From Enterobacter phage vB_ECC_MY742: a stretch of DNA of 64,000 nucleotides. Position numbers and translations under genes: made by a program. This document shows positions 47,826-49,067 of the stretch, in pieces (position 1 is the first letter of the stretch; each line of letters starts with the position of its first letter). The DNA lies in sequence record PV593737.1; one strand, given 5' to 3'. Under the pieces are notes generated by a model. It was not told the origin of the DNA. It saw only the letters and a list, made by a program, of their open reading frames with translations, and did not search any database.

Positions 47826-47882
47826 TTAATCTCCTTGTTGGTGTAGAAGCATAATAACATGCCTCTACACCGATGTAAACTA
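47826..47882 (-). repeat. PeSL-like early promoter cassette, copy 1 (GTTTAC-18-TATTAT with GGTGTAGAAG/CCTCTACACC inverted repeat around -10)
   Basis: One of three homologous ~60-bp elements preceding consecutive small early genes. The -35 overlaps the upstream gene's stop codon. Confidence 0.6.
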
Positions 47883-48122
47883 TTTCTTTAAAGCTTCTTT
47901 AAAAACTTCAAGAGATACAGTATCAGCCGGGGTCAGATACACATAATTGAATACACGACCGTCAAGCCCAAAGACTTCTACACACAGATTGTAGTAGTCG
48001 CTTTCAACCAAATGCATAGCCTTAGGCTCATGAATTTGGTCAAATAGCTGAACAACATTTGTACCAGCCCAGATGTTGTTACGACCATCATAATCAAAAT
48101 CTTCAATCAGAACATAAATCAT
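47880..48122 (-). CDS. Hypothetical protein (80 aa)
   Basis: Intact ORF between two PeSL-like cassettes. Confidence 0.45.
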   Translation of the reverse strand: MIYVLIEDFDYDGRNNIWAGTNVVQLFDQIHEPKAMHLVESDYYNLCVEVFGLDGRVFNYVYLTPADTVSLEVFKEALKK

Positions 48123-48352
48123 TTTGCCTCCAGAGTCATAATTTCTTTGAAGTAGTTAGCGTGCAGCTCACGATTGGCTTCAAAGAAGAAGTCATCATTG
48201 AAATCAATCAGAGAATCAAAATCGCCTTCCAGAACCATCAGGGTGCATACACTAATCAGTTTTTCTGATACGATTTTTACTTTAGATTTAGCAGCGATTT
48301 CACGAGCCAGTTCAACATTCTTAACTACAACTTCCAGTTTTAAAGTTTTCAT
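48119..48352 (-). CDS. Hypothetical protein (77 aa)
   Basis: ATGA-coupled to the upstream gene. Preceded by PeSL copy 2 with a GGAG SD. Confidence 0.45.
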   Translation of the reverse strand: MKTLKLEVVVKNVELAREIAAKSKVKIVSEKLISVCTLMVLEGDFDSLIDFNDDFFFEANRELHANYFKEIMTLEAK

Positions 48353-48354
48353 TT

Positions 48355-48423
48355 TATTTCTCCGTTTGTTTCAATTTGTTGGTGTAGGAGTATAGTAACA
48401 TGCTCCTACACCGGTGTAAACTA
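48355..48423 (-). repeat. PeSL-like early promoter cassette, copy 2 (perfect 10-bp inverted repeat GGTGTAGGAG/CTCCTACACC flanking TACTAT -10; -35 GTTTAC)
   Basis: Best-preserved copy of the repeated promoter/stem-loop element. Confidence 0.65.
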
Positions 48424-48789
48424 CTTGTTGAAAACTTTTTTGATTAATTCAATCATTTCTTCAGCGTTATTAGAATCTACTTCTAATTTCATCTCAAGAA
48501 CACCACGTGAAGCACCTTCAGGCTTGACTTCTTCAAAGAATTCAAATTCTGAGCTACAGATTTCGAAGTAAGTGTCGCCATCGCCATCCTCGCCAAACAC
48601 TTCACCGTTTGACATGCGGACTTTAGTTACATAACGATCAGTACCTTCGCTATGAACCGTTAAAACTGTAAACGAACCACCGTTCTCATCGATAGATTCG
48701 AGCATATTTTCGTTGCATGTATTTTCATCAACAAACTGTTCACGTTTGCTAGGGATAATGCGGTATACTTTGCCTTCTTTCATTTTCAA
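48421..48789 (-). CDS. Hypothetical acidic protein (122 aa)
   Basis: Intact ORF. Its stop overlaps the -35 of PeSL copy 2. Confidence 0.45.
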   Translation of the reverse strand: MKMKEGKVYRIIPSKREQFVDENTCNENMLESIDENGGSFTVLTVHSEGTDRYVTKVRMSNGEVFGEDGDGDTYFEICSSEFEFFEEVKPEGASRGVLEMKLEVDSNNAEEMIELIKKVFNK

Positions 48790-49004
48790 TCCTCGATGCT
48801 TTCAAGAGTTTCGGCTTTAAGTTCTTCGTCCATACCCACCATATACTCATTATGGAGGTAATGTTCGATAACGGAACGTTCGCCTTCTAGTGTCACTTCA
48901 CAACCTATGCCTTCTTTACAAGAAATTTCTTTAAGGTTATAACGATCAAGACAAGTCTCTTGGAAGTAAGCATAATCATAAACGTAGATAGTAACTTTAG
49001 CCAT
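48786..49004 (-). CDS. Hypothetical protein (about 72 aa)
   Basis: ORF 48786..49067. The likely start is MAKVTIY at 49004 after PeSL copy 3. Confidence 0.45.
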   Translation of the reverse strand: MAKVTIYVYDYAYFQETCLDRYNLKEISCKEGIGCEVTLEGERSVIEHYLHNEYMVGMDEELKAETLESIED

Positions 49005-49009
49005 TTTTA

Positions 49010-49067
49010 AATCTCCAGTTTGTTGGTGTATGAGTATAGTAACCTGTTTTGAAAGCGTTGTAAACAC
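49010..49067 (-). repeat. PeSL-like early promoter cassette, copy 3 (GTTTAC-17-TACTAT; upstream arm of the inverted repeat degenerated)
   Basis: Shares TTGTTGGTGTA.GAGTATAGTAAC with copies 1 and 2. Confidence 0.55.

Follow-up and report, generated by a model that had tools for sequence, protein, structure and literature searches.

Predicted early promoters of the PeSL class between gene 32 and frd in a T4-like Enterobacter phage

Three related repeats in the gene 32-frd interval of Enterobacter phage vB_ECC_MY742, a T4-like phage of the genus Kanagawavirus with 96% identity to Entb_45, are standard T4-type early promoters, and two of them carry a hairpin around the -10 hexamer. Promoter-early stem-loop (PeSL) cassettes of this class have already been described in T4-type phages, and the elements are therefore real and conserved yet ordinary for this phage group, with nothing to surprise a specialist. 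From a 64,000-nucleotide stretch of the genome (sequence record PV593737.1; referred to here as the window) and from related phages, we consider it probable that these are T4-type early promoters of the PeSL class in which the nested hairpin acts in RNA reading through from the upstream unit, and that the copies double as recombination substrates.

Anatomy of the three elements

The elements lie where an earlier note on this DNA had placed them, on the minus strand among the small early ORFs between gene 32 and frd (Table 1). The genes downstream of them include homologues of T4 frd.3, frd.2 and frd.1, and ORF E carries the annotation frd.1 in PEi20, PEi26 and CHI14. The shared core of about 50 nt was recovered by a repeat search, which groups the copies with 82% and 78% identity over 55 nt. 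For the composite pattern GTTTAC-N18-TAYTAT-N5-TACACCAACAA, the window has three exact matches and one further match with two mismatches (at 62269), against 0.00 expected from 100 shuffles.

The T4 early consensus has GTTTAC at -36 to -31 and a -10 hexamer with A at -11 and T at -7 (PMC1524935), and T4 early promoters are built from UP, -35, TGn and -10 elements (PMC2988021). The sigma70-like early promoter reading of the earlier note is sound for GTTTAC and the -10 in all three copies, but the TGn is present in copies 1 and 2 only. With the -35 read as TTTACA, every copy has the canonical spacer length of 17 nt (TTTACA-17-TAYTAT). The A+T content of the 25 nt upstream is 84% in copy 1, 80% in copy 2 and 56% in copy 3, against a window average of 60%; these nucleotides also encode protein in copies 1 and 2. 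A GGAG Shine-Dalgarno sequence and an ATG follow each copy, as had been described. The reported overlap of the -35 with the preceding stop codon is found in copy 1, where ORF D's TAG and the -35 are fused (TAGTTTAC), and in copy 2, where the same holds for the TAG of FRD2, but not in copy 3, whose upstream neighbour, gene 32, ends 120 nt away. We rejected the idea that the palindrome is a plus-strand promoter: it offers a TATAGT but no -35 at the proper distance.

Folding of copy 1 yields a hairpin at 47871-47840 with 14 pairs, a UUAU loop and a free energy of -23 kcal/mol (z -6.47), and folding of copy 2 yields one at 48412-48381 with -18.1 kcal/mol (z -3.21). The arms GGTGTAGGAG/CTCCTACACC, previously assigned to copy 1, are those of copy 2; copy 1 actually has GGTGTAGAGGC/GCTTCTACACC, with one G.T pair. 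Both hairpins surround the -10, but the stem extends into the -10 region in each, and the earlier picture of a -10 within the loop of a 10-bp inverted repeat has to be modified to that extent. Copy 3 has no significant hairpin by folding (z -0.08) and is a promoter only, which leaves a stem-loop in two of the three proposed stem-loop cassettes. It retains the right-arm and leader motif ATACACCAACAA, and the only hairpin available to it is the gene 32 terminator, some 90 nt upstream. A search of curated RNA families (Rfam 15) over window positions 45500-51500 gave no matches at E <= 1.

Table 1. Genes, terminator and early promoters in the window (SD, Shine-Dalgarno sequence).
Feature	Position	Strand	Remarks
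Gene 32, ssDNA-binding protein, 299 aa	49186..50085	-	Bounds the small-ORF cluster on the upstream side
Gene 32 intrinsic terminator	49155..49181	-	Canonical; 11-pair stem and T-run; from terminator scan
Copy 3	49010..49067	-	-35 GTTTAC 49065-49060; -10 TACTAT 49041-49036; SD GGAG 49016-49013; ATG 49004
ORF A, FRD3 family, 72 aa	48786..49004	-	PF05798; first gene of copy 3
ORF B, FRD2 family, 120 aa	48421..48783	-	PF03197; second gene of the copy-3 unit
Copy 2	48355..48423	-	-35 GTTTAC 48421-48416; TGn and -10 TACTAT 48397-48392; SD GGAG 48363-48360; ATG 48352
ORF C, 77 aa	48119-48352	-	With ORF D, two-gene cassette (47880..48352) between copies 2 and 1
ORF D, 80 aa	47880-48122	-	Second gene of the C-D cassette
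Copy 1	47826..47882	-	-35 GTTTAC 47880-47875; TGn and -10 TATTAT 47856-47851; SD GGAG 47834-47831; ATG 47824
ORF E, DUF5417	47546-47824	-	Behind copy 1; homologous to T4 Frd.1
ORF F, DUF7247	47230-47553	-	Behind copy 1, after ORF E
Early promoter	29462..29513	-	Same architecture, other arms GCTGATTGAGTGTG/TACACTCAATCAGC; 14-bp hairpin, -27 kcal/mol, z -6.65
Early promoter	35814..35865	-	-10-bracketing hairpin CCGGAAGT.../...ACTTCCGG; -19.7 kcal/mol, z -3.69
Early promoter	38680..38731	-	Weaker, bulged hairpin TTGTTGTGT/ACAC(T)AACAA; -14.3 kcal/mol, z -1.24
Early promoter	30980..31030	-	No nested hairpin; canonical terminator (GGGAACCCTAGTGGTTCCC and T-run) upstream
Early promoter	62218..62269	-	Leader type ...ATACCAACAA; no hairpin; pattern match and folding
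Early promoter	23392..23443	-	TAGTTTAC fused to upstream stop; no hairpin; pattern match and folding

The promoter family and its nested hairpins

The copies do not form a local trio, as the earlier note had taken them to do, but belong to a genome-wide set of at least 31 similar promoters. In the window together with Entb_45 positions 1-100 kb, the early-gene strand has 31 matches to GTTTAC-N17/18-TAnnAT and the opposite strand one (about 0.8 expected per strand), and all promoters of this census lie just upstream of a Shine-Dalgarno sequence and ATG. The two sites listed earlier as diverged copies, at 29513 and 31030, are both genuine early-promoter matches, with a hairpin at the former and none at the latter; overlooked at the time were the promoters whose -35 starts at 62269, 38731, 35865 and 23443. 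A pattern search of IMG/VR for the GGTGTAG/CTACACC subtype retrieved 20 stretches on 10 T4-sized viral contigs.

The evidence indicates a genuine hairpin that is under selection. The segment from the spacer to +15 reaches a minimum free energy of -14 kcal/mol or lower in 12 of the 31 promoters, compared with 2.1% of random genomic 46-mers (p = 9e-13), while 14 of the 31 have no nested hairpin reaching -11 kcal/mol. The arm sequences vary among elements (GGTGTAGGAG, CCGGAAGT, GCTGATTGAGTGTG, GTCTGTAGGA, ACGGGT and others), with at least six unrelated arm sequences at the equivalent site around -10. Directly after the stop of the gene that comes before frd.1, which is frd.2 or its counterpart by position, a hairpin bracketing the -10 is kept in T4, Potts1, Merlin and CHI14, its arms being AGGGTAGTA/TACTATTACCCT in T4 and GGTGTAAGAT/ATCTTACACC in Merlin. 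Within the GGTGTAG family, 93.8% of cells are paired, four pairs show compensatory changes and the covariation score was matched by 1 of 500 shuffles, in a set of 22 sequences whose outer six to seven pairs could not vary, having been specified in the IMG/VR search pattern. Covariation within this family is modest and its sequences are mutually related; an earlier count on 12 sequences had given only a weak signal. A joint alignment of GGTGTAG-like elements that included the GTCTGTAGGA and GTGTAGGAG variants was mis-registered by MAFFT, and same-register sets were used.

The hairpins are also asymmetric between the strands. In 15 of 17 hairpins, the more stable fold is that of the sense (mRNA) strand (Wilcoxon p = 0.005), copy 2 being one of the two exceptions (-22.5 kcal/mol on the antisense strand), and G.U pairs number 22 in the sense and 8 in the antisense orientation, opposite to the compositional bias of the hairpin-less promoters. 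This sense-strand bias points to a role at the RNA level.

Placement of the hairpin follows the upstream context. Where the -35 abuts the upstream stop codon, 14 of 19 promoters contain a nested hairpin, versus 3 of the 12 others (Fisher p = 0.012), and at least 6 of 13 non-abutting promoters examined have a clear GC hairpin and T-run terminator 10-25 nt upstream. The nested hairpins of copies 1 and 2 were considered as intrinsic terminators in their own right and rejected: they have no U-tract, being followed by AACAA, and the terminator scan did not call them, its only intergenic call on the minus strand being the gene 32 terminator at 49181-49155. Efficient termination by them is doubtful for these reasons. 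The terminator after gene 32 is conserved among T4-like phages (PMC1524935).

Part of the similarity among the elements may belong to an extended promoter and leader consensus and not to the hairpin, because some promoters with no left arm (copy 3, L010 42918 and L011 22822) are likewise followed by the right-arm motif CCTACACCAACAA. In its full form, this explanation would treat the whole core of about 50 nt as an extended early-promoter and leader consensus (spacer, discriminator and CA-rich initial transcribed sequence) and the inverted repeats as neutral by-products, for example of templated quasi-palindrome mutation or gene conversion. T4 early promoters do have extra consensus regions beyond the -35, TGn and -10 (PMC2988021), and the census promoters lacking a nested hairpin would be expected. 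Such neutrality is, however, at odds with the sharing of one site by hairpins with unrelated arms, with the compensatory changes in the GGTGTAG family, with the conservation of a hairpin at an orthologous site from T4 to the window phage on different arms, and with the dependence of hairpin presence on what lies upstream, and we regard the explanation as unlikely.

On the reading that we prefer, in which the hairpin acts in read-through RNA, host sigma70 RNA polymerase would read each element immediately after infection, recognising the -35 (G-TTTACA), the 17-nt spacer, the -10 (TAYTAT, with TGn in copies 1 and 2) and the A+T-rich upstream region. Short, translationally coupled mini-operons would be driven in this way: FRD3-FRD2 by copy 3, ORF C-ORF D by copy 2, and DUF5417-DUF7247 onward by copy 1. 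Transcription would start about 7 nt past the -10, at the A of ACACCAACAA, and the resulting leader is predicted to be short, unstructured and CA-rich, with the GGAG Shine-Dalgarno sequence. In copies 1 and 2, the inverted repeat lies inside the promoter: the left arm falls within the spacer and the right arm spans -6 to about +5, so that the hairpin would form only in RNA reading through from the upstream unit, 5-8 nt past the stop codon. Its most likely task there would be to mark or insulate the upstream unit's 3' end, either by attenuation or by blocking 3' exonucleases; the choice of attenuator or 3' stabiliser is a guess on our part. The nested element would then be a compacted form of the "terminator then promoter" pair that the phage appears to use where intergenic room exists, and copy 3 would need no nested hairpin because the gene 32 terminator precedes it.

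Conservation and cassette exchange

Absence of the repeats from related phages, which the earlier note had named as evidence against its proposal, was not observed. Elements are present at orthologous positions in all nine Kanagawavirus relatives examined and also in other genera; in PEi26, two of the three element positions were detected. The same architecture is found at the orthologous frd.2/frd.1 junction in T4, Marfavirus, Moonvirus and Winklervirus.

The suggestion that the elements are mobile modules which shuffle small genes has mixed support. Copies 2 and 1 flank the ORF C-D pair. T4 and Potts1 lack this pair and have a single element there, and homologues of ORF C occur in four different contexts, each time directly behind an early promoter. 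The FRD3 allele is replaced (31% identity) in CIP9, Q7622, ZX14 and Kos305, the junction lying at 48990, immediately past copy 3. In PEi20/KLB31, cores have been exchanged among element positions: the PEi20 core at position 1 differs from window copy 2 at 2 of 35 sites, while its leader is identical to that of copy 1 (18/18). IME523 and Q7622 carry an additional 189-bp ORF whose insertion point is exactly the -35 edge of the promoter at 35865. Indel junctions, on the other hand, are not significantly enriched at the elements, as 3 of 30 fall within 75 nt of one against 1.2 expected (p = 0.12; window positions 20000-50200, four relatives). With gene boundaries as the null, our estimate shows no enrichment at all: about 8 of roughly 50 boundaries carry a promoter, and the 3-4 junctions observed do not exceed expectation. 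Most indels lie at plain gene boundaries, several of them in the frd-32 interval, and the extra ORFs of PEi20 and PEi26 between frd.3 and frd.2, as well as the extra ORFs beside frd, have no flanking elements. In Cronobacter phage S13, the ORF C cassette lies between two near-identical terminators.

In the preferred reading, the elements would serve as homology patches of about 50-120 nt that act as recombination substrates, and recombination between such patches would account for both the core swapping and the bracketed ORF C-D cassette. A DNA-level signal would go further, with the palindrome extruding as a cruciform or hairpin and forming a hot spot (for example for endonuclease VII or the phage recombination machinery) at which cassettes are excised and inserted as PeSL mini-circles. 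[quoted passage not shown] Yet a DNA duplex should be symmetric between strands, while folding and G.U pairs favour the sense strand, and hairpin placement obeys the logic of transcript units (abutting stop versus separate terminator). Taken with the lack of significant enrichment of indel junctions, this makes a dedicated DNA signal quite improbable in our judgement.

We think it very unlikely that the palindrome is a regulatory device on the promoter, either a DNA cruciform or a site for a phage factor, that switches these early promoters off. A milder form of this very unlikely reading would make the RNA hairpin and the downstream GGAG, a candidate RegB site (RegB is encoded by the closest relative), a processing module through which neighbouring early cistrons differ in stability independently of each other. 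Less likely still is an operator at which the inverted repeat around the -10 binds a dimeric phage DNA-binding protein that silences these promoters: the arms of 10 bp, astride the -10 and separated by about two helical turns, offer a fitting geometry, the GGTGTAG/CTACACC arms are invariant in 22 family members (with the outer six to seven pairs fixed by the search pattern), and the mechanism of T4 early-promoter shut-down is incompletely understood (PMC3014915), but at least six unrelated arm sequences occupy the equivalent site, the inner arm positions covary instead of being conserved, copy 3 has the right arm but no left arm, and neither the sense-strand G.U bias nor the dependence on upstream context would be expected.

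Comparison with known systems

PeSLs were first defined with a stem-loop most commonly between the -35 and -10 or overlapping the -10, in five positional subclasses (PMC2839356). Copies 1 and 2 have a stem-loop that overlaps the -10, whereas copy 3 taken by itself has none; the promoters of copies 1 and 2 also lie between an upstream stop (TAG fused to the -35) and a downstream Shine-Dalgarno sequence and ATG, and the repeats are many per genome and mainly among small non-essential early ORFs. The PeSLs of RB49 and phi1 (Arbiol et al. 2010, PMC2839356) share with the window elements a sigma70-type early promoter in that same setting, possibly an A+T-rich upstream region, a stem-loop with G.T pairs between the -35 and -10 or overlapping the -10, and many copies among small non-essential early ORFs, pairs of which flank ORFan cassettes missing in relatives. 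In contrast, the -35 here is the T4-type GTTTAC instead of a near-perfect TTGACA, and the stems are of mixed sequence (GGTGTAGG.../...CCTACACC) instead of polyG/polyC. For RB49 and phi1, promoter and terminator activity were shown experimentally and mini-circles were formed (PMC2839356). The elements of the window phage show no significant indel enrichment.

The PeSLs of T4/PST and nt-1/KVP40 (Comeau et al. 2014, PMC4122927) are similar in the promoter consensus TTTACW-N17-TAYWAT, which is that of T4/PST, and in the concept of a composite promoter-terminator unit. As in PST, a stem-loop or terminator stands just upstream of the promoter in copy 3, at 31030 and in many Entb_45 promoters; in copies 1 and 2, unlike those PeSLs, the stem-loop is nested around the -10 and not upstream of the promoter. 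T4 itself (AF158101) has counterparts at orthologous positions. Its gene 32-frd.3 promoter consists, like copy 3, of the gene 32 terminator and then a GTTTAC promoter, and in its frd.2-frd.1 promoter the frd.2 stop and the -35 are fused (TAGTTTAC), the spacer is 18 nt long, and a 12-bp hairpin brackets the -10, TACTAT. The arms of that T4 hairpin (AGGGTAGTA/TACTATTACCCT) are unrelated to those in the window, however, and T4 has one element at this site where the window phage has two, flanking ORFs C and D.

Similar to Rho-independent terminators, the nested hairpins are stable, lie right after a stop codon and can form in the upstream transcript, but they have longer loops as well as no U-tract. 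The cassettes resemble lambdoid morons in being self-contained small-gene units with their own promoter and hairpin. Morons have been proposed to insert via illegitimate recombination (discussed in PMC2839356), whereas the flanking elements in the window phage are homologous repeats able to recombine together.

We found no mention of PeSLs for Kanagawavirus in the literature searched, and the present results extend the architecture to Kanagawavirus, Marfavirus, Moonvirus and Winklervirus. Their value is mainly one of annotation, in that they delimit the predicted early transcription units for the accessory genes between gene 32 and frd in Kanagawavirus. Two modest additions, useful for understanding T4-type genome organisation, are the placement rule, by which the hairpin is nested if the -35 abuts a stop codon and a separate terminator is used if there is room, and the sense-strand folding bias. 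The ORF C-D cassette is, in addition, a clean candidate for PeSL-mediated excision.

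Setting and anatomy of the three promoter elements

The window belongs to the genome of a T4-like myovirus, and its stretch 46000-50200 is 96% identical to its closest relative, the Kanagawavirus Entb_45 (sequence L011 here), and 91-95% identical to other Kanagawavirus (Tevenvirinae) members. The three elements considered here (copies 1-3) lie among the small minus-strand genes between frd and gene 32.

Genes and promoter elements from gene 32 to frd (window positions)
Feature	Position	Strand
gene 32	49186-50085	minus
Copy 3	49010-49067	minus
FRD3	48786-49004	minus
FRD2	48421-48783	minus
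Copy 2	48355-48423	minus
ORF C	48119-48352	minus
ORF D	47880-48122	minus
Copy 1	47826-47882	minus
DUF5417 gene (annotated frd.1 in PEi20/PEi26/CHI14)	47546-47824	minus
DUF7247 gene	47230-47553	minus
31-aa CxxC mini-ORF	47147-47242	minus
ORF G	46899-47147	minus
frd	46279-46899	minus

Read on the minus strand, copies 1, 2 and 3 are aaaTAGTTTACatcGGTGTAGAGGCatgtTATTATGCTTCTACACCaacaaGGAGattaaaATG, aagTAGTTTACaccGGTGTAGGAGcatgtTACTATaCTCCTACACCaacaaattgaaacaaacGGAGaaataaaATG and ggtGTTTACaacgctttcaaaacaggtTACTATactcatacaccaacaaactGGAGatttaaaaATG, respectively. In a repeat search of the window, the three share a 55-nt stretch with 78-82% identity; between copies 1 and 2 the likeness covers 119 nt (71%) and takes in the final codons of the gene before the element and the opening codons of the gene after it. 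The composite promoter pattern matched four times in the window, against 0.00 expected, and a sigma70 scan returned TTTACA-17 nt-TAYTAT in each copy. The early-promoter reading of the earlier note therefore stands for all three, except that the TGn motif it assigned to every copy is found only in copies 1 and 2. RNA folding yielded a 14-pair hairpin for copy 1 (-23 kcal/mol, z -6.5) and a 10+3-pair hairpin for copy 2 (-18.1 kcal/mol, z -3.2); hairpins had been described for both copies, but with shared arms, and the arms in fact differ between the two. No significant structure was found in the RNA fold of copy 3 (z -0.08). Copy 3 is preceded by the gene 32 terminator, and its -35 does not overlap the upstream stop codon, although such an overlap had been stated for every copy. 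Two sites previously regarded as diverged copies, with -35 boxes starting at 29513 and 31030, are both early promoters, the former with a hairpin of 14 pairs (z -6.65), the latter with no hairpin.

The 31-aa mini-ORF (MWILTDWECKYCGGGLLFAGGICPNCKMRQG) has a zinc-ribbon-like CxxC...CxxC pattern, overlaps the genes on both sides and matches phrog_17317 (E = 2e-22); it is kept in Potts1, Merlin and CHI14, and the annotations of most relatives show an "intergenic gap" of ~79 nt there. The frd gene is intact in the window (206 aa); the Entb_45 frd lacks 106 bp (window 46463-46570) and its annotation splits it into two pseudogene fragments. Elsewhere, an auxiliary metabolic gene for a 331-aa DAHP synthase (34050-35045, minus strand; PF00793, E = 4e-74) is shared by the window and Entb_45, with ~59 bp in its place in Kos305, IME523 and Q7622; no early-promoter element was found at its junctions. 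An 81-nt unit in four diverged copies (67-75% identity) plus a 159-nt pair at 53916-54785, in what is probably a tail-fibre gene, and a 95-nt repeat pair at 9222 and 10507 look like coding repeats without relation to the promoter elements.

A genome-wide family and the conservation of its hairpins

The elements form a genome-wide family, not a local trio. In the window, GTTTAC-N17/18-TAnnAT has nine minus-strand occurrences and a single plus-strand one; when the first 100 kb of Entb_45 are included, 31 matches lie on the early strand and one on the other, with ~0.8 per strand expected by chance. Copies 1-3 are very probably early promoters. In the 46-nt segment that begins at the spacer and ends near +15, 12 of the 31 promoters fold at -14 kcal/mol or lower, compared with 2.1% of random genomic 46-mers (binomial p = 9e-13). 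The hairpin arms vary among elements (GGTGTAGGAG/CTCCTACACC, CCGGAAGT/ACTTCCGG, GCTGATTGAGTGTG/TACACTCAATCAGC, GTCTGTAGGA/TCCTACAGAC, ACGGGT/ACCCGT and TGTGTTAGGC/GCCTAACAC). The GGTGTAG/CTACACC subtype, to which copies 1-3 belong, is found at several loci per genome, and an exact-pattern scan of IMG/VR for it retrieved 20 stretches (10 T4-sized contigs).

The earlier note had named absence of the repeats from related phages as counting against it; copies 1-3 are present at orthologous positions in all nine Kanagawavirus relatives, with two of the three detected in PEi26. The arms in ZX14 are GGTGTAGAAGC/GCTTCTACACC, Watson-Crick throughout, compared with a G.T pair in the window, and those in PEi20 are GGTGTAGAA/TTCTACACC; these variants are compensated. 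Across 22 distinct sequences in the same register, 93.8% of cells are paired; sliding the 3' partner lowers this to 32-56%. Both sides have changed in four pairs of this set, and its covariation score was reached by 1 of 500 shuffles; this evidence is moderate, since the sequences are related to each other and the search pattern had fixed the outer pairs. Just after the stop codon of the gene ahead of frd.1, the element retains a hairpin bracketing the -10 in T4 (TAGTTTACatcAGGGTAGTAgtgtgaTACTATTACCCT), Potts1 (Marfavirus), Merlin (GGTGTAAGAT/ATCTTACACC) and CHI14. This cross-genus comparison is stronger evidence than the covariation of the 22 sequences, and the hairpins are very likely under selection.

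Placement and possible role of the hairpins

Of the 19 promoters whose -35 lies at most 15 nt from the upstream stop codon, 14 have a nested hairpin, compared with only three of the 12 others (Fisher p = 0.012). Promoters with the -35 away from that stop mostly have a classical GC hairpin and T-run terminator 10-25 nt before the -35. Together with the terminator ahead of copy 3, these data indicate that nearly every early promoter has a hairpin partner, which is folded into the promoter where there is no room elsewhere. A -35 adjoining the upstream stop often reads TAGTTTAC; this fusion of a TAG stop to the -35 box recurs at 23443, 38731, 47880 and 48421 in the window and in several Entb_45 promoters, and the promoter appears to constrain the upstream gene's choice of stop codon.

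Of 17 hairpins, 15 fold better as the mRNA-sense strand (Wilcoxon p = 0.005), G.U pairs in these hairpins number 22 in the sense and 8 in the antisense, and the compositional bias is reversed in promoters without a hairpin. Under general sigma70 promoter geometry, transcription would start ~7 nt past the -10. The promoter's own RNA would then hold only the last ~5 nt of the right arm, so that a transcript running on from the upstream unit would be the only RNA able to form the hairpin, which would stand a few nt 3' of that unit's stop codon and might serve as an attenuator or exonuclease barrier. Placement, sense-strand bias and folding in read-through RNA only all speak for a function in RNA, at the upstream unit's 3' end, and we lean slightly towards the hairpins acting on upstream transcripts in this way. 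The weak point of this reading is the lack of a U-tract after the nested hairpins, for which intrinsic terminators were rejected; in addition, copy 2 is among the two hairpins with the better fold in the antisense. Elements whose arms vary and covary are not operator-like, and a curated RNA family was rejected because 45500-51500 gave no Rfam 15 match at E <= 1.

Other early promoters (10382 and 13169 in Entb_45; 19606, 8249 and 12308 in L010, another sequence of the promoter census) have an anti-SD stretch (CTCC or CCTC) in the spacer, which pairs with the SD of the gene that follows (for example CTCCTTTTAGTGT...ACACTAAAAGGAG, -19.4 kcal/mol); the SD would be sequestered in read-through RNA and free in promoter-initiated RNA. 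Entb_45 also encodes the RegB endoribonuclease (L011:9867-10325; PF10715, E = 1e-72). The GGAG SDs of the three leaders (47831-47834, 48360-48363 and 49013-49016), with the A-rich sequence 3' of them, match 5-6 of 7 positions of the RegB consensus GG*AGRAYARAA (PMC3014915) and are candidate RegB cleavage sites. At 49088-49148 (minus sense), past the gene 32 terminator and ahead of copy 3, lies a large, near-perfect hairpin (ATGGAACATATAAGTTAC, a 25-nt loop and GTAACTTATATGTTCCAT; -29 kcal/mol). Serratia phage CHI14 and all nine of the Kanagawavirus relatives keep it, with compensatory arm changes, and it is absent in T4, Potts1 and Merlin. Its loop in PEi26 and PEi20 is the reverse complement of that in the window and KLB31, a small flip-flop inversion of the segment that the arms enclose.

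Probable exchange at the elements and relation to known cassettes

In PEi20 and KLB31, the core at the site of copy 1 differs from copy 2 at 2 of 35 positions and from copy 1 at 7 of 35, and the leader is that of copy 1 (0/18 differences); a copy-2-type core on a copy-1 leader points to short-patch exchange between copies. FRD3, behind copy 3, has a 31%-identical replacement allele in CIP9, Q7622, ZX14 and Kos305, with flanks 93-98% identical and the upstream junction at 48990, 14 nt inside the ORF. IME523 and Q7622 have an extra 189-bp ORF 0-3 nt from the -35 of the 35865 promoter. T4 and Potts1 have homologues of FRD3, FRD2 and Frd.1 and lack ORFs C and D, and their single frd.2-frd.1 element matches copy 2 on its FRD2 side in one half and copy 1 on its DUF5417 side in the other, the topology drawn by Arbiol et al. 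for ORFan192. Homologues of ORF C occur in four contexts (the window, the ORF268-ORF266 gap in Merlin, straight after gene 32 in CHI14, and rIIB-denB in Cronobacter phage S13), in every one directly 3' of an early promoter. The S13 homologue (L040, 1640-2042) forms a cassette of one gene and its promoter, bounded by two near-identical terminators (AAAAGGACTCTTCGGAGTCCTTTTTT), a direct-repeat signature of insertion. These cases agree with the earlier proposal that the elements drive gene shuffling. Counting against a dominant role, junctions were not significantly enriched near them: for ~17 indel/replacement events in window 20000-50200 compared with four relatives, only 3 of 30 junction coordinates are at most 75 nt away from an element, against 1.2 expected (p = 0.12). 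Several indels in the frd-32 interval fall at plain gene boundaries.

Promoter-early stem-loop cassettes (PeSLs) were first described in RB49/phi1 (PMC2839356): strong early promoters of sigma70 type joined to stem-loops, most commonly between the -35 and -10 or over the -10, and were extended to T4/PST (TTTACW-N17-TAYWAT) and nt-1/KVP40 (PMC4122927); the T4 early -35 consensus is GTTTAC (PMC1524935). Among the papers searched, none links PeSLs to Kanagawavirus or Enterobacter phages. Copies 1 and 2 have the promoter and stem-loop features that define PeSLs at sequence level; copy 3 pairs its promoter with a separate terminator. An RNA-level hairpin role at the upstream unit's 3' end would correspond to the "composite promoter-terminator" notion put forward for PeSLs. 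The earlier note's core identification was right: the elements are real, non-random and conserved, and are further instances of the known PeSL kind. Unlikely to be a major driver of indels in Kanagawavirus, they probably served as recombination anchors at the frd-32 locus.
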